A stretch of 64,000 nt of DNA from Candidatus Iainarchaeum sp. (GTDB taxonomy: Archaea; Micrarchaeota; Micrarchaeia; Anstonellales; Bilamarchaeaceae). The notes under the pieces are model-generated. The model saw only the letters and a list, made by a program, of their open reading frames with translations. It was not told where the DNA came from and did no database searches. Both the position numbers and the translations under genes were made by a program. Location of the stretch: positions 20,745-84,744 of the forward strand of contig JAQUBA010000002.1 in assembly GCA_028686985.1 (NCBI GenBank), read 5' to 3'. Shown piece after piece: positions 4,190 through 43,166 of this stretch; the stretch's first letter is position 1; every line of letters starts with the position of its first letter.

Positions 4190-4379
4190 TACTTAAATAG
4201 GTTTAAATGGCATACGTTCTTTTGCATTATTGAGAAGATCATATTTAGCCAATTGTAATAGAAAAATGTAAACGCTTATTCCGCCAACTTCGCAGAAAAA
4301 TCCGAAAATTCCTGCTGTCTGGTCCATATACGGTGGTTTCCAGCTTCATTTTTATACCCTTCTATACCTAAGTATACCT

Positions 4380-4850: not shown

Positions 4851-4852
4851 CC

Positions 4853-20861: not shown

Positions 20862-20923
20862 GCCCTTCCCTTCACATAAAAGCTTAAAAAAGGGTGAGGA
20901 TAAACTCCTTTGCGTGGTATTGG

Positions 20924-22603: not shown

Positions 22604-22634
22604 CTTTTTATATTTCCGCGGCTCCACATAGCCG

Positions 22635-23852
22635 ATGCTCGTAAAGAACGCCAAATTCTTCCTTGACGGGAAAATGACGGAGAAGGACATCCTCATGGAG
22701 GGCGGGAGGATAAAATCCCTCGGCCATTTCCCCGGGAACGGCATGGACGCCTCCGGCTATCTCGTGCTTCCGGGCCTCATAGACGCCCACGTGCACCTGC
22801 GCGACCCGGGCGCCACGCAGAAGGAGGACTTCCGTTCCGGCACCAGGGCGGCAATCGCGGGCGGAATAACGACCGTGCTGGACATGCCCAACAACAACCC
22901 CCCCACCACCACGCTCGCGCGGCTGGAGGAGAAGCGCGCAATCGCATCCAGAAAGGCCGTGTGCGACTACGGCTTCCATTTCGGCGCGGGAACGAATAAT
23001 TTTGGCGAGATTGAAAGGGCGAGGCCCGGCTCCCTAAAGGTGTATATGGGAAAAACCACCGGCGACCTCTTCCTTCCGGACGACAGGCTCGTTTTCCTGC
23101 ACTTCCAGAATTTCCCAAAGAAAAAACCCATAGTCGTGCATGCCGAGGACCAAACCATAATAGACACCGAGGGACGCACCCCCCTCGCGGCGCGGGCCGC
23201 GGCGGCGAAGGCGGCGATGCTCGCGGAAAAGGCGGGCCGCACAATCTGCATCGCGCACGCCAGCACCGCGCGCGAAATGGAACTGGCGAAGAGATGGAAA
23301 AAATCCTTCGTGGAAACCTGCCCGCATTACCTTTTCTTGAACGAGGAAAAGGTCAAGCGCCTCGGAAATTTTTCCAGGGTGAATCCGCCGGTGCGCAGCG
23401 AGCGGGAGAGGAGAAAGATGTGGGCCGCGCTGGGCATGGTAGATTACGTTTCCACGGACCACGCCCCCCACCTTCCCGAGGAAAAGGAGAAGGGGGCCGC
23501 GGGCTTCCCGGGGCTTGAGACATCGCTAGCCCTGATGCTGGACGCATACAACAAAAGGCAAATCGGGATGGAATGGATACTCTCAAGGATGTGCGAAAAC
23601 CCGGCCCGCATATTCAACATAAAAGGCAAGGGGAAAATCGCGCCCGGCTTCCAGGCGGACCTTGTTTTCGTGGACCTGAGGAAGGAATGGAAGGTGCGCG
23701 CGGAAAGAATGCAGGGCAAGTGCGGCTGGACGCCCTACGAGGGGATGGCCCTTAAGGGAAAGGCAGAGAAGGTCATTTTCCGCGGCGAGCTTGTTTTTGA
23801 GGGGGATGCAATAACAGGAAAAAGCGGAATAGGAAAAGAAGTCATGGCATAA
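22635..23852 (+). CDS. pyrC: Dihydroorotase (cyclic amidohydrolase)
   Basis: 405 aa; LPGLIDAHVHLRDPG metal site, DHAPH motif, amidohydrolase fold. Confidence 0.75.
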   Translation: MLVKNAKFFLDGKMTEKDILMEGGRIKSLGHFPGNGMDASGYLVLPGLIDAHVHLRDPGATQKEDFRSGTRAAIAGGITTVLDMPNNNPPTTTLARLEEKRAIASRKAVCDYGFHFGAGTNNFGEIERARPGSLKVYMGKTTGDLFLPDDRLVFLHFQNFPKKKPIVVHAEDQTIIDTEGRTPLAARAAAAKAAMLAEKAGRTICIAHASTAREMELAKRWKKSFVETCPHYLFLNEEKVKRLGNFSRVNPPVRSERERRKMWAALGMVDYVSTDHAPHLPEEKEKGAAGFPGLETSLALMLDAYNKRQIGMEWILSRMCENPARIFNIKGKGKIAPGFQADLVFVDLRKEWKVRAERMQGKCGWTPYEGMALKGKAEKVIFRGELVFEGDAITGKSGIGKEVMA

Positions 23853-24282
23853 CCGCGGACGAGGACGCCACTTCCACGCCCACCATATCGCCCAGGTTGG
23901 TTATCTCAAGCCGGTACCTTCCGGGGCTCGTTATCGTCCTTCCGTCAGAAATCCTGAAGTCCGTGGGCTGCACCACGTCGCTGTCCCCGGACGGGAGCCC
24001 CGCGGTGAAGACGACCTCGTGCCCCTCTATGCTGACCCTCTTCACGTTGTTCGGCACGTATACCTCGGTTATTATGGATGAGCCCTCGCCCATGTAGCCG
24101 ATTGCGTTGATGAGGTACGCGACCCTCGCCGCGGAGAAGTGCGCCTGCAGCACGGAAAGGTCCGCGTTCGCGTCCCCCAGCTTCAGGTACATCACGGACA
24201 TCAGGGGTATGAACAGCAGTAGTATGAACCCTACGACAATAAGCAGTTCGTTGCTGACCTGCCCTTTCATTCCCATGCGCAT
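23842..24282 (-). CDS. Second type IV pilin-like protein with class III signal peptide
   Basis: MRMGMKGQVSNELLIVVGFILLLFIPL - KGQ + hydrophobic helix; 146 aa. Confidence 0.65.
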   Translation of the reverse strand: MRMGMKGQVSNELLIVVGFILLLFIPLMSVMYLKLGDANADLSVLQAHFSAARVAYLINAIGYMGEGSSIITEVYVPNNVKRVSIEGHEVVFTAGLPSGDSDVVQPTDFRISDGRTITSPGRYRLEITNLGDMVGVEVASSSAVMP

Positions 24283-24287
24283 CCACC

Positions 24288-25361
24288 TTACCTGAAAGAC
24301 CTCTTCTTCATCTTCATGTATGCCTTCCTCTTCGTAAGAAGGCTTTTTATTTCTGCGGCTGTGCCGCTTATAGCGCTCCCGAGGTCGTAAGACTCCACCT
24401 TGAGCGGTATCGGCTGGTCCATCTCCACGTGGGTGTTCACCACATAAGTGGACTTCCCCCTCTTTATCCTGACGTTGATGCTGTCTATCTCAAAGGTGTC
24501 AAGGAAGTTGGCCACGGCCTTCCTAAGCTCGCTTATTATCAGGTCATAGTTCCCCATCTCATCCTCGGAAAGCCCGCTTATGAAGACGTCCGGCTTCTTG
24601 GAGTGCAGGCTCACCAGGAATTTCATAACGTCCCTGGCGGTCACCACGCCAACCGGCTTGTCGCCATCCATCACCGTGATTGCGGAAACGCTGTGCGCCG
24701 CCATCTTCTTCGCGGCCTCGTGCAGCGTGCCGCCCATAGATACGCTGACGAACTTGTCGCGCATCATCTGGCGCACCGGCTTGCCGTCCACGGCGTTGAC
24801 CTCGGTTATGAACATGAAATCCCTGCCCTTCGGTTCCAGCAAGGCGCGCGAGATGTCCATCGTGGAAACCGTCCCCACGATTTTCCTGCCTTCGGTGATT
24901 GCGAGCCTGTGCACGCCCATGCTCTTCATCACCCTCCTGGCTACCGCGACGCTCTCGTTCGCGTCCACGCTGTATATCGGGGAGTTCATCAGCGCATCCA
25001 CACTCATCTTGGGTATCGCCCTTTCCCTTATCAGCATCTCCAGCAGCTTCGCCCTGCTGACCGCGCCCAGGATTGCGCCGGCCCTCACGACCGGCAGCGC
25101 CTTGAAATGGCCCGCAAGGAACCTGTCCATCATCTCCATCGTGCCCATCTCCTCGCTCAGGGGGGGAGCGCGCACCGCCATGTTGATGCATTTCGCCTTG
25201 CTGGAGTCATGTATGCCGCCCCTCATCTGGCGGTCGTCTATTATGCCGTAATATTTGCCCCCCTTCGTAACCACCGCAATCGTGCCTCCGGTCACTACCT
25301 CGCTGAGTGCCTTTGAAAGTGGTTCCTCCCCGTCAAAAATAGCCGCCCTCTCGTAGTCCAT
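24288..25361 (-). CDS. CBS-domain protein (tandem CBS pairs)
   Basis: Repeated CBS-like segments; start set at MDYERAAIF to avoid overlap with scpA. Confidence 0.6.
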   Translation of the reverse strand: MDYERAAIFDGEEPLSKALSEVVTGGTIAVVTKGGKYYGIIDDRQMRGGIHDSSKAKCINMAVRAPPLSEEMGTMEMMDRFLAGHFKALPVVRAGAILGAVSRAKLLEMLIRERAIPKMSVDALMNSPIYSVDANESVAVARRVMKSMGVHRLAITEGRKIVGTVSTMDISRALLEPKGRDFMFITEVNAVDGKPVRQMMRDKFVSVSMGGTLHEAAKKMAAHSVSAITVMDGDKPVGVVTARDVMKFLVSLHSKKPDVFISGLSEDEMGNYDLIISELRKAVANFLDTFEIDSINVRIKRGKSTYVVNTHVEMDQPIPLKVESYDLGSAISGTAAEIKSLLTKRKAYMKMKKRSFR

Positions 25362-25385
25362 GCAAACACCGAAAGGGATATAATA

Positions 25386-26171
25386 ATGAAAGATTTTAAT
25401 AAGCGCAGTATGTTCCCCCCCATAACAGCGATGGTCGAAAAGCCCAGCTGGAAGCAGATATTGATAGAACTTGTCATGACCGAGAAGCTGGATCCCTGGA
25501 ACATAGACCTCGTCACTGTGGCGGACTCGTTCTATTCGCATGTGAAGAAGATGGAGAAGTTTGATTTCCGCATCCCCGCGAACATAATCCTCGCGTGCGC
25601 CATCCTTTTGAAATACAAGAGCAACGCGATACGCCTGTACGATGAGCCGGTTGTTGCGGAGGGGGAGATGCCCGTGGAGGTTGGCGAGGAGCCCATACAG
25701 CCGCTCACGCTCTCGTGGAGGATTCCGCCCAAGAGGCAGATAACGCTCCAGGAACTCGTGGACGAGATGGAGCGCACGATAAAATACGACACCATGGAGA
25801 GGCCCAAAAAGGTGGCGGCGCCCCTCCCCATGCTGGACCTCAAGCTTGACAATTATGATTTGGAGGGCGAGATGGTGCGCCTCATGGGCAGGATGAAGGC
25901 GGGCGCGGACATGGAGGGCATAGTCCTCTTCTCATCCTTGGTCAATGGGGGCGGCTCGGAAGGGGTAATCTCAACCATCACCCCGCTCCTGCACCTCGCG
26001 CAGAGGAAGAGCATACTGTTGCGGCAGGACAAGTTCTTCGGGGAGATTTTCATAAACCTGGGCGAAAGCGGCGAGCACGATGGCGATGGAAAAGCGGGGG
26101 ATGGGAAGGAAGGCAATGGGCATGGGGGGAACGCGCAGGCGGCGCCCGGTCTTCAGCATCCCGTAAGCTGA
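25386..26171 (+). CDS. scpA: Segregation and condensation protein A (kleisin)
   Basis: N-terminal QILIELVMTEKLDPWNIDLVTVADSFYSHV ScpA signature; C-terminal winged helix; Gly/Asp-rich tail. Confidence 0.75.
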   Translation: MKDFNKRSMFPPITAMVEKPSWKQILIELVMTEKLDPWNIDLVTVADSFYSHVKKMEKFDFRIPANIILACAILLKYKSNAIRLYDEPVVAEGEMPVEVGEEPIQPLTLSWRIPPKRQITLQELVDEMERTIKYDTMERPKKVAAPLPMLDLKLDNYDLEGEMVRLMGRMKAGADMEGIVLFSSLVNGGGSEGVISTITPLLHLAQRKSILLRQDKFFGEIFINLGESGEHDGDGKAGDGKEGNGHGGNAQAAPGLQHPVS

Positions 26172-26633
26172 GTGGTTTCCATGGGGGACGAAAAAAAGCT
26201 GATGGAGGCCGCGCTCTTCATAAGCGGGAGGGAGCTCTCGCTCAACGATTTCTGCAAGCTCACCGGCATCGCGGCTCCGGGCCACGTGAAGTCCATGCTG
26301 GACGAATTGAGGGCCGATTACGAGAACGCGGGAAGCCCGCTAGAAATCTGCCAGGTGGGCGACAAGTTCGTGATGCGCGTGCGGGACCAGTACGTGCAGC
26401 GCGTCAAATCCTTCGCGCAGGAGGCGGAGCTTTCGCAGGGCGCGCTGCGCACCCTCTCCTATGTCGCGTCCCATGACGGCGCGCTGAAGTCCGGGCTGGC
26501 GAAGAAAATCGGCCCCGTGATTTACGACGATGTGCGCGAGCTGGTGGAGAAGGGCTTCCTCTCGGCGAAGAGGGAGGGGAGGAGCTCGCGGCTTTTGCTC
26601 ACTGACAAGTTCCACGCCTATTTCGGGAAGTAG
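26172..26633 (+). CDS. scpB: Segregation and condensation protein B
   Basis: 153 aa; LMEAALFISGRELSLNDF ScpB N-terminal signature, two wHTH; directly follows scpA. Confidence 0.75.
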   Translation: MVSMGDEKKLMEAALFISGRELSLNDFCKLTGIAAPGHVKSMLDELRADYENAGSPLEICQVGDKFVMRVRDQYVQRVKSFAQEAELSQGALRTLSYVASHDGALKSGLAKKIGPVIYDDVRELVEKGFLSAKREGRSSRLLLTDKFHAYFGK

Positions 26634-26677
26634 TGTCATATAATGGGTTTTTATTGTTTCTCATGAGATATTCCCAT

Positions 26678-27391
26678 ATGAACGCACGCAGAGACGGATA
26701 CAGGCAGCGTGCACAGGAGCTGATGCTCCCCGCGCTGCTAGAGGCGGCGAAGGACTGCGGCAACGAAATCCATATGCATGAGGTTGTGGAGCAGATAGAG
26801 GTGATTGTGCAAGGCATGCTTGCGGACGGAAGGCGCGATACTGCCTTTGACGCCCTGAAGGCAATGCTTTTGCACCACAACGATTATCTGCGCGGGATTG
26901 CGGCCAGGGCCATGATACTGCTTAACGAGCCAGCATTGGACGGTGCGTTGGCCGATGCCCTGAAAAAAGGGGACGGGTATGTCCTGAATGCGCTCGCATG
27001 CGGCTTAAGGGAGAAGATTACGCTTGAAGTGGTGCGCGAAGGCGGGCAGGACAGTAGGACGCCGGAGGACAGGGAGTTCGATGCCGCATCCTTCTCGCTC
27101 ATGGAACGTTTCAGGAAGCGGCGCGTTGTTTCTTCCAAGGACCTTAGGGGAATAGAGGCGGGGCTGCTGGAGGACGCAGAGAATGACGGCGAAGCTTCCG
27201 CGAAGGACAGGCTGATGCTGCGCAGGAACATACTGCTGCTTGAAAGGGAGTTGTGCGCGCCATGCGCGGCTGGCGGCGGGCTTCAGAGGCGCAGCGGGGC
27301 AGGGCGAGGCGGGCATGCCCCCCCGGGTTGCAAAAACGTGGTGCGCCTGCGCGCCGCAAAACCCGAGGATGCATGGCGCATCCCCCGTTAG
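26678..27391 (+). CDS. Hypothetical alpha-helical protein
   Basis: ORF 26633..27391; no family recognised; start uncertain. Confidence 0.35.
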   Translation: MNARRDGYRQRAQELMLPALLEAAKDCGNEIHMHEVVEQIEVIVQGMLADGRRDTAFDALKAMLLHHNDYLRGIAARAMILLNEPALDGALADALKKGDGYVLNALACGLREKITLEVVREGGQDSRTPEDREFDAASFSLMERFRKRRVVSSKDLRGIEAGLLEDAENDGEASAKDRLMLRRNILLLERELCAPCAAGGGLQRRSGAGRGGHAPPGCKNVVRLRAAKPEDAWRIPR

Positions 27392-27456
27392 TTTAAAAAT
27401 ATATGTGAAGTAAAAACAATATCCGCACAGAAAGATGAAAAAGAGAAAGTGATGAC

Positions 27457-27981
27457 ATGGCACTCAGGCCGGCAAGATGCTTCAGGACGCCTAAGAAACA
27501 GGCATGGACAAGGTTCTCCCAGAAGAGGCCGAGGAAATCCTACATAAAGGCGATGCCGCACAAGGACTTGAACGTATATAGGATGGGCGCCGCAAAGAAG
27601 GATTTTGACTGCACCGCGAACCTCGTGGCGGACATCCCCATAGTCCTCCGCGACAACTCCATAGAGAGTGCGAGGCAGACCGCGAACAAGGAGCTGGAAA
27701 CGAAGCTCGCGGGCAACTATTTCTTCCTGGTGAGGGTTTTTCCGCACAACGTGATCAGGGAAAACAAGATGGTCGCAGGCGCGGGCGCGGACCGTATCCA
27801 GAAGGGCATGAGGCAGGCGTTTGGCAGGCCTACCGACAGGTCGGCCATACTCAAAAAGGGCCAGCCGCTCTTCACGGTTTCAACCTACAAGGCAAACCTG
27901 CCGTTCGTTGAGCGCGCGTTCAGGAAGGCGACCATGAAGCTCTCGGGCAGGTTCAGGCTGGTCCGCGAGGTTGGCGCATGA
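27457..27981 (+). CDS. rpl10e: 50S ribosomal protein L10e (uL16)
   Basis: 174 aa; MALRPARCFRTPKKQAWTRF characteristic N-terminus. Confidence 0.9.
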   Translation: MALRPARCFRTPKKQAWTRFSQKRPRKSYIKAMPHKDLNVYRMGAAKKDFDCTANLVADIPIVLRDNSIESARQTANKELETKLAGNYFFLVRVFPHNVIRENKMVAGAGADRIQKGMRQAFGRPTDRSAILKKGQPLFTVSTYKANLPFVERAFRKATMKLSGRFRLVREVGA

Positions 27982-29687
27982 TAGAAGTAGATGAAGAAAA
28001 TTTCCTTATCGTAACCGACATTGACAGGCTTATGCATCTTGTCGCCACGCAGCGCAGGATTGAGTTGGGAAAGCTGGCGAAGGAGCTTAAGATGAGCCCC
28101 AAAGAGGTGGAGAAGTGGCTCCATATCCTGGAGGACGAGGGGCTGATAACCATAGAGCACAGCCTCACCAAGATTTATGCGGTCTGGGCGGGCGAGGCCT
28201 CGCCGAGGCCTGAAAAGAAACGGGCGGAGAAGCAGGCCACGCGCAGGGAGCAGAAGGTACTCCCGCCCGCAGTTATGGAGGAGAAAGAAGAGGAAGAAGA
28301 GAAAGAGGAGGAGAAGTTCCGCCCCTTCACCACCGAGGAAATCGCGCCGCTGGAGGAGGAGCTGCTGGAATTCAGGGGGCGCGAGGAGAAGCGCGCACCC
28401 AGGCAGCCGGGCCGCGAAGCCCGGAAGCTCGGGACGGATTGGGAACCTGAACCAAGGCGCAGGGAGCCGGAAAGGATGGAAGAAATGCCTGCGCCGCGGA
28501 GGGAGGCGAAGTCGCCCCCCCACAGGGAAGAGAGGCACGGGAAGAAGCCCGCGCCCACGCAGATAAAGGTCAGCGACTACACGAAGCTCCCGCAGGTGGA
28601 GGCCGCGAGCCTCAAGGACAAATTGGACGACTACCTCACGCTAATCAGGGAAAGCAAGAAGGAGCTCAAGGACCTTGAGTCAGAGAAGGAGCGCATGTAC
28701 CGGGAAGGGTACCTGCCGCTTGAGAAAGAGTTTGAGGCGGGGCTTGAGAACATACAGCTCGCAATCCTGGAGAAGGAAAGGAAGATAATGGAGGCCAAGG
28801 AGAAGGCCGCCGGGCTGCCCGAGCAGGTGGAGGAGCTGGAGAAGCTCCAGCGTGCGGTCCGCGAGGTTGAGCAGAAGTCCCGCGCAATCCTTTCCAAGAC
28901 AAAGGGGCAGGTTGAGGGCAAGGCGGACGCGCTTCAGGACGCGTCCGAGGAACTCGGCGAGCAGATTTCCCTCGGAGAGGAGGAGGCCATGCGCGAGCGC
29001 GCGAAGATGTTTGAGCTCAAGGAGCTTCTCGGCTCCATACAGTCCAACGAGGAGAACATACGCGAGGCGATAGAGGGGAACAGGAAGGCCATGGACGAGG
29101 CAAAGTCCAAGATTGAGCAGCTTGAGGACTCGCTGGGCGACGTGGTGGATGCCCGCACGCTCCTCGCAGAGCGCATAGACACGATACAGTCCGGGCTGGA
29201 GAGGAAGATACGGAGCCTGGACGAGCTGAAGAATGACCTGGAGGAGATTGAGCGCGTGGAGGGCTGGTTCAGGGAATACAGCCAGGACTACTCCCGCAAG
29301 CTTGAGGAGATGGAGGCCTACGTCTCCAACAACCAGCAGGAGATAGGCAAGCTCATGGAGGCGGCGGAGCTGGAATACGTCAAGAAATACCTTGAGAAGC
29401 TCTCCGAATCCGAAGACAAGTACCGCGGCAGGCTGCGCCTGCTGGAAGTCCAGGACACCGAGCTTGAGCAGAGGATTTCCGAAGCCAAGGAGCGCATAAG
29501 GCAGCTCCTTTCCGAGAGCACGCGCCTCATGGAGGCGAGCAGGAAGAAGGCCGCGTCCTCAACCTTTGACACTTCGGATGCGAAGAAAAAGATGGGGGTG
29601 AAGGCGGCCGTGCTGGAGGAGAAGTCCAAGGAGAGGAAGGGGCTCTTTGACGCGCTCAGCAAAGGGAAGGACAAGAAGAAGAAATAA
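27978..29687 (+). CDS. Long coiled-coil protein with N-terminal winged-helix-like domain and poly-E/K segments
   Basis: 569 aa; N-term LGKLAKELKMSPKEVEKWLHILEDEGLITIE wHTH-like; remainder heptad-rich E/K/R/L coiled coil; 4-bp overlap with rpl10e. Confidence 0.55.
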   Translation: MIEVDEENFLIVTDIDRLMHLVATQRRIELGKLAKELKMSPKEVEKWLHILEDEGLITIEHSLTKIYAVWAGEASPRPEKKRAEKQATRREQKVLPPAVMEEKEEEEEKEEEKFRPFTTEEIAPLEEELLEFRGREEKRAPRQPGREARKLGTDWEPEPRRREPERMEEMPAPRREAKSPPHREERHGKKPAPTQIKVSDYTKLPQVEAASLKDKLDDYLTLIRESKKELKDLESEKERMYREGYLPLEKEFEAGLENIQLAILEKERKIMEAKEKAAGLPEQVEELEKLQRAVREVEQKSRAILSKTKGQVEGKADALQDASEELGEQISLGEEEAMRERAKMFELKELLGSIQSNEENIREAIEGNRKAMDEAKSKIEQLEDSLGDVVDARTLLAERIDTIQSGLERKIRSLDELKNDLEEIERVEGWFREYSQDYSRKLEEMEAYVSNNQQEIGKLMEAAELEYVKKYLEKLSESEDKYRGRLRLLEVQDTELEQRISEAKERIRQLLSESTRLMEASRKKAASSTFDTSDAKKKMGVKAAVLEEKSKERKGLFDALSKGKDKKKK

Positions 29688-29688
29688 T

Positions 29689-32451
29689 CTAGACTATTCT
29701 TTTCATCCTATTCATCCTTTCCGGTGCCGCTTCAAACCTTCTCTTATGCCTCGTGGGCTTCATGAAATGGTCCCTTTCTATGCGCGCGCCTTTTGCTGCC
29801 GCCCTATCCGCGGTTTCTGTTTGCTGCCGCCCATCCAATTGTTTTAGCGCAGCTCTGATCTCTTTTGCCCTATCCCGGTAACGTGTAGCTACCCTCTCTG
29901 GATTGATGAGTTGCCCCACCAAACAGACCGCCAATACTTTTTTGTATAAACTGTATGCCGCATTGCTGTCCCGGATGATGTCTTGAAACAGCTTATCTGG
30001 AATGGAGAAATCACTATCAGACCTCTTATGTCCCTCATTGTACAATAACAGCAACAGCCTTACCCTATCAGTATACGGCGGTTCCAGTAAACGCAGTAAC
30101 TGGTACTTTGGTTCAGATGCCGCGATGCCCTTGGCCCCTAGCAAAACGCAAAGCATTTCATAATATTCTCTAACGGCACTCAGGGGCCAGTGCTTCCAGT
30201 ACCATCCAGTGGGTTCCCCTAACAACAATATTATCGCATTGTTGAAATCTTCGCCTGATAAACCATATTTTCTCATCAACCTTTCCCGGGTTTCAGGAAC
30301 TTCTTTTCCTGATAACCCCGCTATGGGGCGCCTTTCGCAGAAATTCCTTATCTCGCGCGTGAATCCTTTCCATTCTTCGCCATCCATTCCTGCATGTTTT
30401 GGCAGGCTCAGCGTAATGTTGATTTCGGCAGTAAGCAGCGCCGCCTGCTCTTTTTGTGCAAGCAAGCCAAGATTGTAGATTAGGTCTAAATCAACACCCT
30501 TTTTTGAAAGCAATCGCTTCATGAATCCCCAAAGGTCTTCACCCCCGGTGACCAGTTCTTTAAATATGTTCATCCGGGATATGAAGTCAGGTTTGTCTTC
30601 CAATTCCTCAGTTGCATTACTCACGCGTTTCGCGAATTCCGGGGGCGCTATCTGCCCCTCTAGCTCCCCAAACAAATCCACGAGCCTTCCCGTACATAGT
30701 ATCCCGAATATTATTTCTGCGGCCCTTTTTGGATTCTTCAGCTTAATTATGTTCTCCGAAACAACCCTGAATGCGGACTCATCGTCCATAGACGAAATTG
30801 CTTCAACAAGCATATCCACTCCCGCCTTTCCCCTCTCTGCCAGCATGTGCGCCGCTTTTTTGCCGAAAATTTTTCCTGCCGAGCTAGAGTCCTTAACAAG
30901 CTCCACAAGGGCATTCATATGCCCCGGGTTCCTGCACAACTCCTCAAACGCCACCCTCGCCTCCCAATAGTTTGTTTCGCAGTTACCCCTCACCTTCCCA
31001 AGCAGGGTTTCGGAATCCATTTCGGAAAAGCCGCCGAAAGTCCCGGAATTCTTTTCCACATCAACGAATTCCACCCCATTTGGAAGAACAGCCCCCACAG
31101 AACGTTTTGCAGTCCTGGCGCTTGCCCATCCATAAAGCTCACTAACCTTCCCAACGGCCTCGTACCACTCCCTTTCCCTCGCATCATCTTTGTCCGCTTT
31201 GTTGATTTTTGCAAGCCGGTACCCCGTGGCAATATTTGCAATCAGGAGGCAATCCTCGTAGCTTAACTTCCTGTCCTCAGGAAGCAGCCCATCGCTTCTT
31301 TTCTTTACCGCAAGAGCGGTGGCAAACGCACCGCACAGGGTGTCCCCGGCACCCACAAGGCTGCAGTCATTAGGAAGAGTTATGTCCACCGAAGGGACAA
31401 AACCAGTGGATTTGTCGCCTCCGATGATGCAGGCGCCTTCCCGAGTATGCATGAGCAACGGCACCCCCGTTTTTTCGTAAAGCACGTGCGCAGCCGAATA
31501 TGCATCCTTCTTCCCCTCCCTGCCTTTATCCAAAAAAGCATCCACTTCCTTTATCTTTGCCCTAGCCGCGGCTTCCTTCTTCTTTGAGCCGTCTTTAATT
31601 GCCTCATCAAGTTCTATGATTAGCCCTTTCTTCTTATTGTTGGCTTCCAGTATTTCCTCTTTGTCAGTCCTCACGAGCAGCATTTCAAACAACGTTGCTT
31701 CGTCCTCGTTTATGGAGAGAAGCCCTATTGTTGACAAACCCCCCTTCCCCAGCAATATATCCAGCATCCTATAATTCAGATCCATATCGTCCCCGGACGT
31801 GCAGTCACAGAACAGTTCCGGTATGCGGAGCGTTCCATCTTCACAAAGCCCGAGCACGTCCTTCATGAAATTTGATTTTAGCGAAAGCACGGCAACGATG
31901 TCCGCAGAATTCAACAGGCCAAGCACTTCCTCCCTCTGCCCTTTCGAATAGTCATCCAACCTGAGTTCAGGCTGCTCCCCGGGAAATATGGTGGTATGCC
32001 CCGCTCTCACGAGCAATACGTTCCCCCCCTGCTTCCTAAGTTTTGTGCGGTCGTTCAGCACAAATCCGGTACTGGCGGGAGCTATGCCCCGCTCCGCAGG
32101 GTTATTCACAAGATACTGCGTCACCAGCTCCTGCCTGTCTTTCAGGTAAACCTTCGCAAGTATGCTTACGTCCGCTGCTTCGGTAAGCAAGCCACGAAGT
32201 GCAATGGCCGCATTAGCCCCCAGCAGTGCATGGCCGCCCCCCCTGATGAATGTTCCATACCCGCGTACCCTGTCTTTTTCCCTGCCGGAAAGCTCAAGTA
32301 CAAGGTTTTTCCCCTTCGGCTCGGACAGCCCCACATCTCGTACGATGTCCGGGGCGAATACTATCCTGGCCTGTTCGCCATGTTCCGCCAGCGCATCCAA
32401 TGCGTCCCTGAATTTCAACAGCGCGACCTGCTTAGAAACAGTAGTGTCCAT
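29689..32451 (-). CDS. ADP-dependent sugar kinase (ADP-PFK/GK, ribokinase-like) domain fused to ~470-aa C-terminal helical domain of unknown function
   Basis: 920 aa; N-terminal GGGHALLGANAAIALRGL nucleotide-sugar binding, ...LVGAGDTLCGAFATALAV GXGD catalytic motif at ~res 365; long helical C-terminal extension; locally lower GC. Confidence 0.6.
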   Translation of the reverse strand: MDTTVSKQVALLKFRDALDALAEHGEQARIVFAPDIVRDVGLSEPKGKNLVLELSGREKDRVRGYGTFIRGGGHALLGANAAIALRGLLTEAADVSILAKVYLKDRQELVTQYLVNNPAERGIAPASTGFVLNDRTKLRKQGGNVLLVRAGHTTIFPGEQPELRLDDYSKGQREEVLGLLNSADIVAVLSLKSNFMKDVLGLCEDGTLRIPELFCDCTSGDDMDLNYRMLDILLGKGGLSTIGLLSINEDEATLFEMLLVRTDKEEILEANNKKKGLIIELDEAIKDGSKKKEAAARAKIKEVDAFLDKGREGKKDAYSAAHVLYEKTGVPLLMHTREGACIIGGDKSTGFVPSVDITLPNDCSLVGAGDTLCGAFATALAVKKRSDGLLPEDRKLSYEDCLLIANIATGYRLAKINKADKDDAREREWYEAVGKVSELYGWASARTAKRSVGAVLPNGVEFVDVEKNSGTFGGFSEMDSETLLGKVRGNCETNYWEARVAFEELCRNPGHMNALVELVKDSSSAGKIFGKKAAHMLAERGKAGVDMLVEAISSMDDESAFRVVSENIIKLKNPKRAAEIIFGILCTGRLVDLFGELEGQIAPPEFAKRVSNATEELEDKPDFISRMNIFKELVTGGEDLWGFMKRLLSKKGVDLDLIYNLGLLAQKEQAALLTAEINITLSLPKHAGMDGEEWKGFTREIRNFCERRPIAGLSGKEVPETRERLMRKYGLSGEDFNNAIILLLGEPTGWYWKHWPLSAVREYYEMLCVLLGAKGIAASEPKYQLLRLLEPPYTDRVRLLLLLYNEGHKRSDSDFSIPDKLFQDIIRDSNAAYSLYKKVLAVCLVGQLINPERVATRYRDRAKEIRAALKQLDGRQQTETADRAAAKGARIERDHFMKPTRHKRRFEAAPERMNRMKRIV

Positions 32452-32505
32452 GTTGTACTATTTATGTGGGTAATGGTTAAAAATACACTTAATCCCATCA
32501 AACGC

Positions 32506-32994
32506 TCATTTTTTGGTGCGCGCCTCGTCCACTATCGCCAGCCACGAGTCCCCGATTTTGTAGAAGCAGTTCCCGAACGTCTTGCTCAGGCTTATCCTCA
32601 TGGGGCGGAATTTCCTCTTGCTCTCCACCGCCACTATGGTTTCCCTCTCAACCTTAATCATGCCCACGCGCCTCAATCTCGGAAGCACGCGGTTGTAGAA
32701 CGTCGCTTTGGAGACATTGTTGTCCGAAACAAACTTGCCGATGTCCGCGCCGTCCATGTGCGGCTTAGCCGCAAGCGCATCAAGGAATTTCACCGCAATC
32801 TCGTGGTAGGTTGGCTGGAACTTCTTTGAGAATACGACGTTCACCACGTCCTCCATCTTCCAGAGGTTCCGCGTCAGGCTTTCATTTGAATCCTGGAAAG
32901 GGCGGAATTCCTCCGCGTTGTGCGCCGGGAAGTACAGGGATTCGGAAGAGGGAATTCCCCTTGGTATTTTCTTCTCCCCAGCCATTCCTTTCAC
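32506..32994 (-). CDS. Hypothetical protein (possible wHTH regulator)
   Basis: 162 aa, basic C-terminal half; no confident family. Confidence 0.35.
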   Translation of the reverse strand: MKGMAGEKKIPRGIPSSESLYFPAHNAEEFRPFQDSNESLTRNLWKMEDVVNVVFSKKFQPTYHEIAVKFLDALAAKPHMDGADIGKFVSDNNVSKATFYNRVLPRLRRVGMIKVERETIVAVESKRKFRPMRISLSKTFGNCFYKIGDSWLAIVDEARTKK

Positions 32995-33039
32995 CTGCCA
33001 TTGCTGCTTGCCGTGCCCGGCGCAAAGTGCACCGGGAAC

Positions 33040-33357
33040 TCACACATCCAAGCCGAATATCGAGCCGAAGCCGCCCTCCGCGGCCTCATCCTCCGCCTCC
33101 ATTTTTTTGAGCACGCGCTCCTCCTCGTCCTTCTTTATTTCGCGGAGCAGGGGCTTGAGCCGCTCGCCCGCCTTTTTTATGAACTGCTCGTCCGCGCTAA
33201 TATATAGATATATCGTATCGGCCTTCTCCCCAAGTGTGGCCCCGTCCCTGAGCTTGTAGCCAGCCCGCGCGAAGCTGTCCTGTGCATACGGGTCCGCCTC
33301 AAGGATGGGCGTGAGGTCCTTCTTCTTCTCCGCAGGGAATGCGAACACGATTTTCAT
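33040..33357 (-). CDS. Small hypothetical acidic protein
   Basis: 105 aa; adjacent (1 nt) to upstream membrane gene. Confidence 0.35.
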   Translation of the reverse strand: MKIVFAFPAEKKKDLTPILEADPYAQDSFARAGYKLRDGATLGEKADTIYLYISADEQFIKKAGERLKPLLREIKKDEEERVLKKMEAEDEAAEGGFGSIFGLDV

Positions 33358-34041
33358 TCACTTCACCCTGACCAAAGAATATGCGGGCTCCACGCGCACG
33401 AAGCCCGCGCCCGCGAACCTCTCCTGCACGAGCGCAATTATGCTGTTCAGCGAAACGTATGTTACGCACATGCCGGAAGCGAACAGGCACCTCTCCACAA
33501 GCACGAGCGGGATGAGCGCCCACCACGCGGCCGCCGGCAGCCCGATAAGATACAGGAACGCGATTGAGCCGACCACGTGCGCCTGGAAGGTGGATGCGAG
33601 GCTCCTCATGAAAAGGTTGGACGCGAAGAATGTTGCAACTATGGGAATGAGCCACAGGAAAGCATAGCCCCACGCCTCGGCTCCCACCGGGTTCAGCCAG
33701 AACAGGAGCATGCCCGCGAGCGGGATTGCGATGCCCGCCCATTTCTTCGCCCTCACCATGCCGAAGCACACCGCCGCCGCGGCCACTGTGAAGAGACGTA
33801 TGAAGCTTATCGCATCCCAGGCGAATTTCCCCAGGAACAGTTTTGAGGCGAAATCCACGGCGATGGCGGACAGCGCCCCGATGCCGGGGCCCATTATGCC
33901 TCCGCCCACCGGGCCGGCGAACTGGAACATCGTGAAGCTCTGCTGCTGCGAGCCGACGATGTAAGAAAGGTTCACGGTGGAGAACGCGAAAGACAGCACC
34001 GAGAACAGGACCAGAAATATTCCTAGCTTGAGCTTTTTGTC
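33358..34041 (-). CDS. Multi-pass membrane protein (possible ECF-type substrate-capture/transport component)
   Basis: ~227 aa from MDKKLKLGIF; 6-7 TM helices, Gly-rich GPVGGGIMGPGIGA segment. Confidence 0.4.
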   Translation of the reverse strand, partial: DKKLKLGIFLVLFSVLSFAFSTVNLSYIVGSQQQSFTMFQFAGPVGGGIMGPGIGALSAIAVDFASKLFLGKFAWDAISFIRLFTVAAAAVCFGMVRAKKWAGIAIPLAGMLLFWLNPVGAEAWGYAFLWLIPIVATFFASNLFMRSLASTFQAHVVGSIAFLYLIGLPAAAWWALIPLVLVERCLFASGMCVTYVSLNSIIALVQERFAGAGFVRVEPAYSLVRVK

Positions 34042-34252
34042 CATAATCCCACAAGGGAAATTAAGCAAAGCAAAGTATAAAAGCAATTGCCCCGCGCCGC
34101 GCTTGTGTGAAGGGAAATGGCTGCCTGCGCAATCCTGTGTGAAAAAGTATTTTCCTAGTATTATTTTGCGCTTTACGTGTGTGCGTAGTTTTTAATCAAG
34201 GTCTTTTGTGGAAGGAAGATATATAAACCTTGACTAACGTAATTATGCAGGT

Positions 34253-35056
34253 GTGATTATGCAAAGCACGGGCTCTGTTAGGGAAAGGGGAAGGCAGAAT
34301 TTTGGTCAGCCGGTCACGATGCCCCCGATTGTCGGGGAAGACGGCGTGCAGCGCGAATATGTGTTCCGTGGTGGGACCGCCCAGGCGCAACAGGACATAG
34401 AAGCCATGGCGAGGCAGCTCAACCGCCTCTCCCTCCAGCACGGCGGCATCATACCGCTGTCTGCATTGCCCGGAGAAACCAGGGAGAAATTTGACAGGCT
34501 TGTTTCGGAAGCGGAGGGCACAAGGGTTATGCTGAATGAACGCGCCTACCCATGTCTTGAAGTGAGGGAGACCGGGGGCAGCGTTTCATTCGAGCCGGCC
34601 GCGGTGACGATGGCTCCGGGCGAAGTTATTTCCAGGGATGAATGGCAGACCAGGGTTTCCATGGTGAATTTTGACATACCCGCGGGCACCACGGCCCATG
34701 TTGCATTTGAAGGCGGCCCAAGCGAAGTGCCGATGGGCGGCCGTTTCAGGTTCTATTGGCAGGGCGTGCCTCCGAGGGACCTCGCGGATTTCGTCGCGAG
34801 GGCGGATGACTGCCTGGTCCCGAACAACGATGGCATCTCAGGCACATGGACGGGATTTGACAGCACTGGGAGGATGATTACGCTCAACATCCGTCCGGGT
34901 GAAAACACGCCGACCTCCAGTGACACGCAGGCAGCCATTATTTATAATCTCGCGGTTCTCCTGAACCAGCGCAGTGACCTTGCTGAAATCGCGACCCCGG
35001 TTGGAGACCTTAACCCGTTAAACGTGAGGCCGAGGCCGAGACTGAGGGAACAATAA
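34253..35056 (+). CDS. Hypothetical protein
   Basis: 267 aa, coding-like, no signal peptide recognised. Confidence 0.4.
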   Translation: MIMQSTGSVRERGRQNFGQPVTMPPIVGEDGVQREYVFRGGTAQAQQDIEAMARQLNRLSLQHGGIIPLSALPGETREKFDRLVSEAEGTRVMLNERAYPCLEVRETGGSVSFEPAAVTMAPGEVISRDEWQTRVSMVNFDIPAGTTAHVAFEGGPSEVPMGGRFRFYWQGVPPRDLADFVARADDCLVPNNDGISGTWTGFDSTGRMITLNIRPGENTPTSSDTQAAIIYNLAVLLNQRSDLAEIATPVGDLNPLNVRPRPRLREQ

Positions 35057-35067
35057 TCGGTGTTCTG

Positions 35068-36030
35068 ATGGGCACTGAAAGAACGCCTTGGTTTCGTTCC
35101 GCAATCCAGCCACACGTTCAGCCACTAACTCCAAGAATTAAACGGCACCGGTTCCCAGAGAAACTTTTTGCCCCCGCCGCTGCCGTGGCACTTTCCATAT
35201 TCATCCTCCACCCCTCCAAATCGGATGCATCCGTAATTACGCAGCGCCCCGCGCCGCCCGCGGCGAATCCGGTGGCAGCGAATCCGCGCCCCTCAACGCA
35301 ATTCGTTATTCCGCCGACCCCGGCGTTCAGCTATGATGGCGGCACGCTCGGGCTGGAGAACTCGCCGGAAGGCCTTTCGCTCGTGTACAGGAAGGAAGGC
35401 CAGAGCCCCAACCGTGTCCCGCTGGATGTGGGTTTTGAAGACATGATCGGCACCATAACCAGGATTCATTATGGCATTGGCCACTCCGTCATCATGGCGG
35501 AGAGGGTGCTGGAAGATGGCGCGACCGAATATTACGCCGTCATCACGCTCGGGGCGAGGGACGTTGCCGAGGGAAGGGCAAAACTTCCAGGGAGCGAAAT
35601 CTTGAACTCGTACGCGGTCGTGCTTCCGGAAATGCCGCTCGCGTCCTCCTTCACGGAGAGCGCGCTCTTCGTTTTCGCGGAAGGCGGCGTGGTGAGGTTC
35701 GTCCCGCTTGGCAGCGACGAAGGCATGACGTGCAAGCTTAGCGGGCTGGACGGAGTCGGCGCGCAGAGCATCGCGATGGAATACATGGGCCTATATTTCA
35801 TCATGCAGCCGGGTGCGGTCCCGCTGTATGTTACCAAGAGGGACGGCGATGATTTTGAGACCGTGCCGTGGGACTACGCGCCGGGCAGCTCGTTCACCTC
35901 GCTGAGGGTGGAGATGGGCGAGAACGGGTTCACAATCGTCTTCGCAAGCCCCGCGGGCAGCATGAGAATGGACGTTTCCGTCCCCGAGGAGGGCGGCTTG
36001 CATTCGGTTGGCGCCTCCATGCACAGGTGA
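35068..36030 (+). CDS. Hypothetical N-terminally anchored (signal/TM) protein
   Basis: 320 aa; hydrophobic segment AAAVALSIFILHP near N-terminus, Pro/Ala-rich linker. Confidence 0.4.
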   Translation: MGTERTPWFRSAIQPHVQPLTPRIKRHRFPEKLFAPAAAVALSIFILHPSKSDASVITQRPAPPAANPVAANPRPSTQFVIPPTPAFSYDGGTLGLENSPEGLSLVYRKEGQSPNRVPLDVGFEDMIGTITRIHYGIGHSVIMAERVLEDGATEYYAVITLGARDVAEGRAKLPGSEILNSYAVVLPEMPLASSFTESALFVFAEGGVVRFVPLGSDEGMTCKLSGLDGVGAQSIAMEYMGLYFIMQPGAVPLYVTKRDGDDFETVPWDYAPGSSFTSLRVEMGENGFTIVFASPAGSMRMDVSVPEEGGLHSVGASMHR

Positions 36031-36078
36031 CGCCCGCCCTGCAAAAAAGCTTTTATTCCTTCCCTCCGTAGGGGCAGC

Positions 36079-36540
36079 ATGAGATGGCTCTTCGTCTTCC
36101 TGGGTGCACTGCTCCTCGCTTCGCTCGCATACTCCGAGCTCACGGTCTTCGCGGCGCAGATACCCGAATCCGGCGCGGTACGGTATTCCGTGGCCCAGAG
36201 GGGCGCGAGCGGCTCCCACCTTTTCATAACGGTGAAGAAGGGGGACACGCAGGTGCAGGCATTTGAGGTGCAGGACTTCAGCGGGGTCGCGAACGGTTAC
36301 ATTTCGCTTGCGGAGGGCGGCACATACCGCCTCATCGCGGTTGAGGCCGACAGCGGCGATTATGCCGAGGCGCAGTTTGAGTTCGCCGCGCCGCAGCCAT
36401 CTGTTCCACCCTCAAGCACGCCAACCTCGCTGGTGCGCGGCATCCCGGATTACCTCATCCTGATAGCCGCAGCCCTTGCCGCGGTGCTGGTGTTCCTGCT
36501 TATGTTCAGCAATCCGCTAAGGCAAAAGCCCAAAAAATGA
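36079..36540 (+). CDS. Small secreted protein with N-terminal signal and C-terminal TM anchor + basic tail (archaeosortase/PGF-CTERM-like sorting signal?)
   Basis: 153 aa; MRWLFVFLGALLLASLAYS signal; C-term PSVPPSSTPTS linker then YLILIAAALAAVLVFLLMF + RQKPKK. Confidence 0.5.
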   Translation: MRWLFVFLGALLLASLAYSELTVFAAQIPESGAVRYSVAQRGASGSHLFITVKKGDTQVQAFEVQDFSGVANGYISLAEGGTYRLIAVEADSGDYAEAQFEFAAPQPSVPPSSTPTSLVRGIPDYLILIAAALAAVLVFLLMFSNPLRQKPKK

Positions 36541-36681
36541 GAAACATCTTTTTCCTCCTTTAAAACCACCTTTCATTCGGTATATTCCTAAAAACAGATT
36601 TTCACCTATTTACAGTTATCAAAACATCTTCGCTGCGCAATCCTTATAAATGCTCTCTACGCGTATATACATGGTGTAATT

Positions 36682-39600
36682 ATGGTTTCTGGCAGCGTTC
36701 GCACAACTGAGGGGCCGACAACTTCTTTTGGCTTGGTGCAGCAGCTTCCCGCGGACAGGATGGCGGGGGCGCGCGAGGTCAATTTTGAGATAAATTTCAC
36801 GGTCGCAGGCGCGGAAAGGGAGGCTAGGCAGGCGCGGGCGGTGCTGATGAGGGAGCTGGGAAGGTGCACCTTCACCACCTCGCTGCAGCGCTTCATAGAT
36901 TCGCACCGCGACCAGATAAATTATGTTAAGATAGCCGGCACGCGGATGGACGTGGACGGTGCGCTGTTTGAGCTTGAGGATTATCTGGAGCCGGGGGTGG
37001 CGCCAGGCGGATACCGCAGGCCCGCCGCGCAGGCGGTGCCAACGCCGACGGAAGCGGTGCCGCAGGTTGTGCAGCCGGCAAGGATTGAGGAAGCGCCTTT
37101 GCCGGAGATTAGGAGCCCGCTGGAGTACATGCGCCAGCAGGAAGAGGAGCGCGCGCAGGAACAGGAAGAACGCGCGCGGGCGCAGGCGCAGCAGCCGGAG
37201 CAGGCGCAGGCGGAACAGGTTGAGCCCCCGCCGCAGCTGCAGGAGCAGGAGGGAGTCCTCCTCACGCAGCAGGAAGCCGCAGCGGTTGAGGCGGTCCCCG
37301 AAGCGGTTCAGGAGCAGGCCGCCGAGCAGGTGCGCGAGAACGTCACCGTGATAAATGCGGCCGTTCCGCTTGATGCGGAATACTACCAGAGGGAGTATCT
37401 CGCGCCCGAGGTTTCGGAAGGCGTGAGGACGTACTCCCGGGTCAGTTCCCCCCATCTTATGGTCATGGGGTGGTGGGGAGAGCTGGTTGAATCATGCGAA
37501 AGGAGCGAGGCGCTCGCAGCGAGGCTTGATGCAATCACTTCCCAGTATTACGGTGCGCTCGATACGCTAGAAGGGGCAAGGGGCACGCCGGGGGAGCGCG
37601 CTTTGCAGAACAAGGTGCGCGAGCTGGAGGGGCAGATGCGCGCGATTGAGCGTGAGATGGATCCGATGCTTGGGAGGCAGGGCCAGCTCATGGTGAACAT
37701 ACTTGCGAATCTTCCCGACGCGTACGGCTGGGCGATGAGCGAGCCGAGCAGGGACCGTGACGCGATGCTCGCCGACCTCAACGCAATAAGGGATGAGTGG
37801 GCATCCAACCAGGCAAAGATAAGGGATGCGCTCTCGCTAAGGGAGATTTCCGGGGACATCGCGGGGGCCTTTGCCCCTGCATTTGCAGCCGCAAGGAGGG
37901 GCTCCATAGAGAACATGTATGACGTTTTTTCGCGCATGATGCAGAACAGCCCGGAAATCGCGCAGAGCTTCGTGGACTGGGTTGCGCTCGGCGAGGCGGC
38001 CCGCGCCTCATACGCGGCCATACCAGTCGGCGAGATAGGCGCAGCGGTGCCCACACTGGGCGAGGCAACAACCGGCGGAGCATTTGAGTTCAGGAGCCGC
38101 CGCGGCACCTTCAGGATAACAATAGCCGGAGAGGACCTTTCCGGCATGACGTTTGCCGAAGCCAAGAGGCGCGTGACTGAGCTGGTGAACGACCAGTCCA
38201 TCGGCAACCAGCAGCTGCTCGGGATGCTCACGGTGGAACAATTGCGCGAGGGGAAAGAGCCCTACCGCTTCATGAGCAGGTACCTCCTGCGCACGCAGTT
38301 CTTCCAGGACTACGCGAGCGGAAACATACGTGTCCTTGAGACCGCGCCGCTCACGAGGGGAGGAATCCCCGCGTCCGTGTATGAGGTTGCGCATGCGCCC
38401 CCGGTCGTGGCCGAGAGGCCGCTCCCGGTTGTTCCTCAGGTCACAGCGCCGCCGGCTGAGGCCGCGCCCGCCCCGGCAGCCGTTGCCTACAATTACGGAT
38501 GGGCAGAAGGAATACAGGAAGAGCTCAGGGGGATAGTCAGCGAGCTTGTAAATCTTCCGCGCTTCCGGCCGGAGGAAACCCAGGCACGCCACGATGAGCT
38601 TGTCGCGAGGGGGGCCGCGCTCTACCGGGAATTCTATTCCCATGTGGGTGAGGCGGAGCCCTCTGAAGATTTGAACCGCATACGGAGGTGGATGTCCAGC
38701 GCTGAAAGGATGTCTTCGTTCGGGTTGGCACTTAATGAGGGAGGGGCGCTTGTGGAGGCAGTGCGCCCAGCCCCTCCCGAAGCGGCAGAAGCGGTTCCGC
38801 CGGCAGCACCGGCAGCCGTGCCGGTTCCCGCAGCTCCGGTTGCGGTCCCGCCAACCGCCGCACCAGTCACCGCGCCGCCGGGCGAGATTTACGTTCCGTC
38901 CGTTCCGACTGCGCCGGCACCCGCACCCTCCGTTCCGGTTTTGGAAGGGCAGCCGCTCGCCGCATTCGCAAGGAGATACGGGATTTCAACTGATGATGCG
39001 CGCGACCTGAACCGTTTCCAGCTCGGGCAGCGCAACGTGCTTGAGGTCCAGGCGAACAGCGAGGAGAACGCAAACCGCCTACTTAACCTCGTTCGGATGG
39101 AGGCAAACAGAAGGGGTGTCGCATCCGAATACGACGTCATGCCGCCACAGGAGGCTGGCGGCCCGTATATCGTATATTACCGGCCCATGGGCATGCTTCG
39201 CGCCGCGGACAGGGCAGCCGTGGAGGCGCAGAACCCCTTCGCGTTCGTCGGCTTCGCAACACGCCTTCCGATGGAATACGCATTTGACTTCGCGGGCATA
39301 AACACGAGGTTCGGCCAGGCATTCGCGCCATACGAGGCGCGGCTCGTCGGCTTCGCGGACGCCGCAACCATAGCGCAGAACCCGGACGCCCAGCTGCCTG
39401 CATACGCCGCGGACACGGTCACGGGCCTCGCATCCTGGGTGTTCCATATCGGCGGCGAAAGGGTGAGCGGCCTTGAGAGGGCGGGCCAGCTCATATACGC
39501 ACGCACGCCCCAGCAGCCGGTTGCGCTCACGGTCGGGGAGGCCGAGGCGCTTTTCCTGAACCAGCGGGAGGCGGCCGCGTTCGCGGCTGCGTTCTTCACC

Positions 39601-43156: not shown

Positions 43157-43166
43157 GTGGAATTAT

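Follow-up and report, generated by a model that had tools for sequence, protein, structure and literature searches.

The gene and its product

The subject of this analysis is a minus-strand gene of Candidatus Iainarchaeum sp. (Micrarchaeota), lying in a 64,000-nt stretch of contig JAQUBA010000002.1 (GCA_028686985.1, positions 20,745-84,744), hereafter called the window. The gene codes for a protein of 920 residues, with an N-terminal kinase-like domain of the ribokinase superfamily and a C-terminal half that is entirely helical, most of which is replaced by a strongly different version in an otherwise nearly identical genome. Homologous proteins are given below by P numbers and their genomic loci by L numbers. 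The features of the gene, with residue numbers in brackets, are the following:

29689..32451, minus strand: complete gene, 920 residues plus stop, a single uninterrupted open reading frame (ORF); homologues span residues 1-920
32477..32485, minus strand: TATA-box-like element TATTTTTAA, at -34 to -26 from the ATG, from reading of the upstream sequence
31117..32451, minus strand: ribokinase/PfkB-superfamily kinase-like domain (1-445), from Foldseek, a profile against the PDB and a predicted local distance difference test (pLDDT) score mostly of 85-95
32230..32241, minus strand: GGGH (71-74), whose G72-G73 match the PfkB di-glycine in a hidden Markov model (HMM) alignment with GGKGAN of human ribokinase
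31699..31710, minus strand: NXXE motif N248-E-D-E251 at the end of strand 244-248, a Mg/phosphate-binding motif in PfkB kinases
31507..31680, minus strand: Lys/Glu-rich helical hairpin (258-315), inserted after the NXXE helix; 28% K+R, 22% D+E
31339..31356, minus strand: VGAGDT (366-371), the GXGD anion hole with the predicted catalytic base D370, aligned to E. coli ribokinase AAGD (D255)
31042..31116, minus strand: conserved linker LPxGVEFxDVEKNS from kinase to solenoid (446-470), just upstream of the 5' recombination breakpoint
30652..31038, minus strand: HEAT/ARM-like repeat block (472-600), paired helices of ~12 residues, pLDDT >90
29821..30651, minus strand: highly variable helical region (601-877), 22-39% identity between allele classes, pLDDT 36-88
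29692..29820, minus strand: conserved basic tail (878-920), 30% K+R, ending in ...RERDHFMKPTRHKRRFEAAPERMNRMKRIV; it holds the 3' breakpoint at about residue 891
29780..31000, minus strand: allelic cassette (484-891), delimited by blastn, sliding identity and the exact first and last differences

A sequence-only reading of this gene had seen in it an ADP-dependent sugar kinase fused to a helical domain without recognisable motifs, in a segment of lower GC content, and had raised the possibility that a frameshift joined two genes near 31070-31110. The fusion of a kinase to a motif-less helical domain and the lower GC hold, while the ADP-dependent assignment (see below) and the frameshift have to be abandoned. 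The reading frame is unbroken across the suspected junction, where the junction peptide is near-invariant in 10 homologues (L456, P457, F462, D464, V465, E466 and S469 do not vary at all). Among NCBI, JGI, ENA and Logan assemblies, 14 database proteins match the query, several over the full length (826-932 residues), and the same fused architecture is present in at least ten independent full-length homologues, all of them from Micrarchaeota. A frameshift fusion is thus ruled out by the continuous frame, the conserved junction and the homologues.

The ATG at 32451 is probably a better start than V40, where the NCBI record of the identical protein begins (P0001, 881 residues), because residues 7-23 form a conserved and confidently modelled helix (L18 nearly invariant, pLDDT ~95) and a TATA-like element lies upstream. 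The gene model of P0001 is therefore likely truncated by 39 codons, which correspond to 32335..32451 of the window. Judged by the usual position of TATA boxes in Archaea, the element suggests that the gene may be transcribed from a promoter of its own into an mRNA with little or no leader.

The locally AT-richer composition noticed earlier is confirmed, with a GC content of 0.505 for the gene against 0.5685 for the window, and a GC content at third codon positions (GC3) of 0.564, where the 56 ORFs average 0.728 (sd 0.094) and only one gene lies lower. The same low GC3 is found in the orthologues at L001 (0.53 vs ~0.75) and L007 (0.45 vs ~0.70) and is absent from those at L003 and L005; in its subgroup the gene has had this composition for a long time. 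On the plus strand, ORFs antisense to the gene and of up to 277 codons (e.g. 31996..32829), which also overlap the upstream neighbour, are in all likelihood shadow ORFs, given the high GC of the genome, and there is no sign that they are genes.

The N-terminal half is a very divergent kinase of the ribokinase superfamily

A full-length AlphaFold model calculated from the family alignment (mean pLDDT 77.6, pTM 0.74) is most confident over the N-terminal domain, and a Foldseek search against the PDB retrieved 21 PfkB and ADP-kinase chains, all of the ribokinase superfamily, at E<=1e-3 and with probability 1.00. The best matches have E-values of 5e-7 to 4e-5 and target template modelling (TM) scores of 0.70-0.75. 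They include the KDG kinase of S. tokodaii (1wye, 0.75) and E. coli YihV (7agh, 0.70), and PH1459 (0.66-0.70), PFK-2, HldA and ribokinase are also among the matches. At the sequence level the relationship is very distant, as identity to solved structures is only 10-14%, the query alone finds nothing among PDB sequences, and its matches to PfkB and ribokinase models in Pfam and NCBIfam are sub-threshold (E ~0.07; 12.8 bits for PfkB, below the Pfam gathering threshold of 25.8). A profile made from the N-domains of 19 family members (A3) nevertheless matches human ribokinase (E 1.1e-5) and E. coli ribokinase (E 8e-5). Moreover, the standalone relative P0018 (393 residues), with 29% identity to the query between residues 13 and 413, passes the Pfam threshold for PfkB with 39.3 bits. 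The query is thus a member of the superfamily through this bridge, yet not a Pfam-defined PfkB protein.

The catalytic hallmarks of a ribokinase-like kinase that had been recognised from the sequence are indeed present. As in the PfkB family (PF00294), the domain has an alpha/beta fold with a beta-sheet lid, and the di-glycine, NXXE and GXGD-Asp motifs follow each other in the canonical order. In the 19-member alignment G73, G367, G369, D370 and T371 are invariant and H74 is conserved in at least 90% of the sequences; the complete set of invariant or near-invariant positions across the family is P34-D35, G73-H74, S246, H335, G367, G369, D370, T371 and C401. According to the profile alignment, H74 and H335 occupy the positions of Lys43 and Thr223 of ribokinase. 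N248 and E251 would correspond to ribokinase N187 and E190, an equivalence drawn from the motif and its position at the end of a strand rather than from structural superposition. The N-x-x-E pattern is kept in the archaeal and standalone members as well as in two members fused to a HAD phosphatase (P0016 and P0017), whereas in the bacterial cousins P0022, P0023, P0027, P0029 and P0030 the Asn is replaced by G or S. Because the di-glycine, NXXE and GXGD-Asp remain invariant or nearly so in the archaeal clade, catalysis is predicted, and their retention over 29-70% identity argues for an active phosphotransferase. Differences from the PfkB family are the two histidines, an additional N-terminal helix, the charged hairpin of 58 residues, the C-terminal extension of ~470 residues and the sub-threshold Pfam score, together with a distribution confined to Micrarchaeota and to rare fused forms of unassigned taxon.

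The earlier assignment to the ADP-dependent phosphofructokinases and glucokinases (PF04587) is not borne out. These enzymes belong to the same superfamily, are of comparable domain length (~450 residues) and have a similar GXGDT segment. However, the query has no match to PF04587 in a Pfam search even at E<=1, nor to any ADP-kinase model of NCBIfam. ADP-glucokinase of T. litoralis (5o5x) is found by Foldseek (E 3e-6) with a target TM of only 0.49-0.52 against 0.70-0.75 for the best matches, which makes the fold closer to the ~300-residue ATP-dependent PfkB kinases; and the family profile reaches ADP-glucokinase at E 2e-3, behind ribokinases at E 1e-5. As for the unusual length of ~445 residues, it results from the N-terminal helix and the hairpin insert, and not from the elaborations typical of ADP-kinases. 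The two helices of the hairpin are modelled at residues 264-287 and 290-307; the insert is missing from P0018, P0020, P0022, P0023, P0027 and P0029 and is longer in P0016 and P0017, and P0018 and P0022 have neither the N-terminal helix nor the hairpin. Given the profile, the fold, the P0018 bridge and the lack of PF04587, we regard the domain as that of a divergent ribokinase-superfamily kinase outside the ADP-dependent family.

The C-terminal half resembles an alpha-solenoid

The C-terminal ~470 residues are modelled as all-helical, with regular helix pairs over residues 480-585 (pLDDT >90), lower confidence past residue ~600 and a mostly disordered tail (pLDDT <50 from residue 874). As the sequence-only reading had stated, this extension carries no recognisable motif: we found no match in Pfam or NCBIfam. 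Only one of ten family members gives a weak HEAT_2 match (E 0.018), the query itself giving none with HEAT or ARM profiles. The structural comparison of this half proposed at that stage brought no significant match to a known domain either: Foldseek searches of the PDB and of viral models returned weak matches at most (best E 0.013, TM<0.26), and the sole fold matches, none of them significant, are to ARM/HEAT proteins. Based on the model, the C-terminal half is best described as a putative ARM/HEAT-like alpha-solenoid that belongs to no known family, with a conserved basic tail after it.

No protein matching the C-terminal domain alone was found with the family profile among 1.84 billion proteins. 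The solenoid is recognisable by sequence solely in the close subgroup P0001-P0010; a local HMM compared with all family members indicates that the subgroup of 826-870 residues (P0011-P0015) has a different extension, or one that has diverged beyond recognition. Alignments of the C-terminal domain to P0022 and to the alignment of the HAD-containing branch (hhalign) were likewise negative. Within the close subgroup, residues 472-600 share 62-74% identity among close alleles (P0002-P0006) and ~40% with P0007.

A solenoid cassette is exchanged between closely related genomes

The most notable feature of this extension emerged from comparison with L008, the locus of the homologue P0002 in another 'ainarchaeum' metagenome-assembled genome (MAG). 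Between L008 and window positions 19689..41920, DNA identity is 98.8-99.7% (blastn) save for one unalignable block; outside that block the two sequences are about 99.9% identical over these 22 kb. Differing columns number 0-3 per 500 nt throughout, except for 582 within 29500-31000, and 29780..31000 is the sole divergence hotspot in 22 kb. The block is preceded by 517 identical bases, identity resumes after it and continues through the stop codon, and both alleles maintain an intact frame across boundaries that are themselves in frame.

At the protein level, the two homologues are 99% identical over the kinase segment, 74% over residues 472-600 and 34% over residues 601-877, a region in which the query is instead nearest to P0005/P0006 (65-66%). 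Since the kinase segment and residues 601-877 have incongruent nearest relatives, recombination is demonstrated. Synonymous divergence (dS) is 0.005 in the kinase domain and 0.84 over residues 472-600, where the ratio of nonsynonymous to synonymous divergence (dN/dS) is 0.19; over residues 601-877 the proportion of synonymous differences (pS) reaches saturation at 0.78, with a range of 0.50-0.78 over the cassette. Synonymous sites near or at saturation, combined with purifying selection in the alignable part, indicate that the alleles are ancient and have been kept functional, and from these sequence comparisons we interpret the cassette as an ancient allele block exchanged by recombination. 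There are at least five allele classes, which differ by 61-78% in residues 601-877 and by 15-43% in the kinase segments, and the additional divergence of residues 601-877 is present in every ortholog pair. Both the window and the L008 cassettes have a GC3 of ~0.53; repeated exchange via a common pool of alleles would fit with the low GC3 of the gene.

Hypermutation by a diversity-generating retroelement was rejected on the substitution pattern (a block of 1.2 kb with indels and near-saturated synonymous sites at all base types), a reverse transcriptase and template repeat not having been searched for. No silent donor cassettes are present in the DNA examined, and a donor lineage for the P0002 cassette was not found. 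Scans of metagenome contigs for further alleles gave none in a first round and distant loci alone in a second. The loci of the P0011 lineage are all ~100% identical and represent the same strain, making it impossible to replicate the swap there.

The gene at L008 appears split into ORFs of 90 and 756 residues by a run of N (L008 9470..10001, about window 32170..32190), which is an assembly gap and rules out a pseudogene. Two smaller groups of differences between the window and L008 were also observed. The tract 32356..32386 (residues 22-32) has 8 differences in 31 nt (AEHGEQ vs AEKGEQ plus synonymous changes), which suggests a small gene-conversion patch. Five further differences cluster at 29573..29588, ~100 nt beyond the stop codon and within the 3' end of the convergent gene 27978..29687, in a flank that is otherwise identical.

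Rarity of the family and its sister branch

Even among Micrarchaeota, members of the family are very rare and their distribution is patchy. Searched in full with the family profile (HMMER), 1.84 billion representative proteins gave 24 matches at E<=1e-3, and a pattern-limited scan of 185,579 species genomes gave three loci, all from Micrarchaeota, as are the named short forms. We found no account of this Micrarchaeota protein in the literature.

A sister branch (P0016, P0017, P0022, P0023, P0027, P0029, P0030 and P0034-P0036) combines the kinase-like module with a helical linker and a HAD phosphatase, and in some members also with an N-terminal CHAT protease or EAD7 domain. Its N-domain is homologous to that of the query (27-30% identity over ~410-440 residues) and is likewise followed by helical or HEAT_2 repeats. 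It differs in carrying the HAD domain, whose DxD, Thr and GDxxxD motifs are intact, and in post-kinase regions that show no detectable similarity to the query solenoid; most of its members (P0022, P0023, P0027, P0029, P0030) have lost the NXXE Asn that P0016 and P0017 keep. EAD7 has been described as recruiting effectors to conflict systems (PMC7159879), and we found no published account of a ribokinase-like effector with EAD7 or CHAT.

At L016 (6863..10381) and L017 (8001..12434) lie EAD7- or CHAT-kinase-HEAT-HAD proteins of 1172-1477 residues. These two loci are syntenic, and adjoin two epimerase/dehydratases and a PGM/PMM, plus a GHMP kinase in L017. To find adaptor domains of conflict systems combined with sugar-nucleotide neighbours is odd. 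This context is a hint of sugar-phosphate chemistry, or merely reflects the relatedness of the two organisms.

Genomic neighbourhood

The genes of the window are archaeal and include ribosomal protein L10e, ScpA/ScpB and RFC. Three genes upstream of the kinase gene (242, 105 and 162 residues) and a convergent gene for a coiled-coil protein are syntenic in close relatives alone, and none has an informative match in Pfam, NCBIfam or the PDB. Distant homologues have unrelated neighbours; P0010 adjoins a PFK and P0007 adjoins ackA-pta. With synteny confined to close relatives and uninformative neighbours, we dropped gene context as a guide to function. The suggestion of a regulated glycolytic kinase, made from the sequence, gains no support from this context, which is not conserved among homologues.

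The convergent gene (27978..29687, plus strand) codes for 569 residues with an N-terminal winged helix (weak MarR/Lrs14-like matches) and an extended SMC-like coiled coil. The gene overlaps the stop of L10e by 4 nt, converges on the kinase gene with a gap of 1 nt, is near ScpA/ScpB and is syntenic in L001 and L008; its product could be a chromatin or segregation factor. Farther away, 36682..45140 (plus strand) holds three consecutive large ORFs of 1580, 580 and 657 residues without Pfam match, the first of which is kept in L008 (1580 residues), while L001 has an ORF of 1673 residues in a comparable position. On the minus strand at 3533..4189, in the region 3001-5000, an ORF of 218 residues with a GC of 0.33 and a GC3 of 0.26, in a genome of 57% GC, adjoins a tRNA-Glu (3452..3526) and has no Pfam or NCBIfam match; it gives the impression of foreign DNA, or of a recent insertion, at a tRNA site.

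A kinase coupled to a variable recognition module?

Taken together, these data lead us to favour, tentatively and with a confidence a little short of even, a kinase of small molecules to which a variable recognition module is coupled. The protein is the product of one intact gene and would be cytoplasmic, with two modules. The first (residues 1-445) would most likely use a nucleotide, probably ATP, to phosphorylate a hydroxyl of a sugar, sugar-phosphate or nucleoside-type molecule. The second (residues ~470-880), a putative clade-specific ARM/HEAT-like solenoid, exists in deeply diverged functional allele classes, which are swapped by homologous recombination via the conserved linker and the basic tail. 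It would confer specificity for a partner that varies, for instance a protein of a virus or of a host cell, or a ligand particular to a population, and binding of this partner would control or localise the kinase. We infer the catalytic activity, the recognition role and the coupling of the two modules from the evidence above: a conserved enzyme head joined to old, discrete and recombining allele classes is the pattern of a specificity determinant, and such domain exchange suggests a recognition module rather than inert scaffolding. Consistently, in distant cousins this kinase-like module is joined to CHAT or EAD7, adaptor domains of conflict systems.

Several observations weigh against this proposal. 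The surroundings of the gene (L10e, ScpA/ScpB) are of housekeeping type, keep their synteny in a relative at 56% identity and do not form a defence island, and PADLOC-DB v2 HMMs have no match in the query, P0011, P0016, P0018, P0023, P0027 or P0030, while in P0022 the CHAT part alone matches. The bacterial cousins, next to sugar-nucleotide genes and with an apparently active HAD, fit ordinary metabolism equally well. The alleles are under purifying selection and saturated relative to one another, neither of which is proof of positive selection, and the P0011 lineage is without variation, though its loci represent one strain. Finally, the swap has been seen in just one pair of MAG contigs, in which a chimera from a bubble in the assembly graph may be involved.

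The main competitor, and a serious one, which we hold to be less likely than not, is an ordinary metabolic kinase acting on a sugar, sugar phosphate or nucleoside, e.g. in nucleoside salvage or sugar-nucleotide synthesis, whose extension would be a weakly constrained oligomerisation or scaffold appendage diversified by neutral recombination or introgression among related populations. The intact catalytic motifs speak for it, as do the nature of the top structural matches (the metabolic PfkB kinases KDG kinase, YihV, PFK-2, HldA and ribokinase), the sister branch with its motif-intact phosphatase beside epimerases, PGM/PMM and GHMP kinase, the neighbours of P0010 and P0007, the housekeeping-like syntenic position on the chromosome and the dN/dS of 0.19. 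A near-saturated block of 1.2 kb that matches one domain, in otherwise near-identical DNA, is however atypical of a housekeeping enzyme, and discrete allele classes, the extreme rarity and patchiness of the family, the persistent GC3 deficit and the lack of a conserved context among homologues also stand against it. That the kinase-like domain is instead a non-catalytic ligand sensor, the protein being purely a scaffold or adaptor, appears improbable: His74 and His335 in place of Lys43 and Thr223 of ribokinase are odd substrate contacts, the bacterial cousins have lost the NXXE Asn and the query lies below the Pfam threshold, but over a span of 29-70% identity the archaeal clade keeps GXGD-Asp, NXXE and the di-glycine with little or no variation, which speaks for retained catalysis.

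An artefact is quite improbable, whether two genes fused by a frameshift or by the assembly, or a cassette that is itself a chimeric metagenome assembly. Both sequences do come from MAG contigs and the N-run inside the L008 gene hints at a locus that is hard to assemble; against this, the frame of the gene is continuous, the fusion recurs in at least ten independent full-length homologues, both alleles are in frame across the boundaries, and the excess divergence of residues 601-877 recurs in all ortholog pairs. Highly improbable, and disfavoured here, is a glycolytic kinase of the ADP-dependent PFK/GK family with a regulatory extension. The resemblance of GAGDTxxGAF to the GXGD region of ADP-kinases, the length of the domain and the presence of ADP-glucokinase among the structural and profile matches are outweighed by the missing PF04587 match, the poorer TM scores, the higher profile scores of ribokinases, the assignment of the bridging P0018 to PfkB by Pfam threshold, and the lineage-specific helix and hairpin that account for the extra length.

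Likeness to known systems and significance

The kinase with a recognition module that we favour has parallels in unrelated proteins. The target-recognition domains of HsdS in Type I restriction-modification systems and the sensor kinases of agr and comQXP combine a conserved core with a variable recognition part that exists as old, discrete allele classes recombined at conserved flanks. The query similarly has a conserved catalytic part beside recombining old allele classes; it differs, beyond the lack of relationship, in having no co-varying partner gene adjacent to the cassette, as the flanks are identical. An analogy, and only that, can also be drawn with DSR2, in which a SIR2 NADase head is followed by a C-terminal alpha-solenoid that binds the phage tail-tube protein (PMC11850899, PMC11263360), an N-terminal small-molecule enzyme with a large C-terminal helical-repeat domain. 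The enzyme class is different, there is no sequence or significant fold similarity, and the query has neither a PADLOC match nor evidence of phage sensing.

A stronger and unlikely version of the proposal would be a new sensor-effector in DPANN archaea, in which the solenoid senses a virus or host protein and switches a PfkB-type kinase acting on a nucleoside, nucleotide or sugar, as an effector of immunity or symbiosis; its alleles would be under frequency-dependent selection, and the cousins with CHAT, EAD7 and HAD would be the equivalents in other, probably bacterial, lineages.

What is new here is a very rare and unannotated branch of the ribokinase superfamily with a recombining solenoid of no known family. 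On the practical side, the NCBI model of the query probably starts 39 codons late and that of L008 is split by the assembly gap. If the protein is metabolic, it would be an unusual kinase, whose sister branch pairs kinase with phosphatase, perhaps for the metabolism of sugar nucleotides. The small genomes of DPANN archaea contain many unannotated genes, and to our knowledge their host recognition and virus resistance are largely unknown. A sole hotspot between near-identical genomes is a signature of specificity loci in recognition or conflict. Should recognition prove to be the role of the solenoid, the protein would offer a tractable way to study how Micrarchaeota recognise partners or viruses, and the immune-type effectors known so far would be joined by a kinase.

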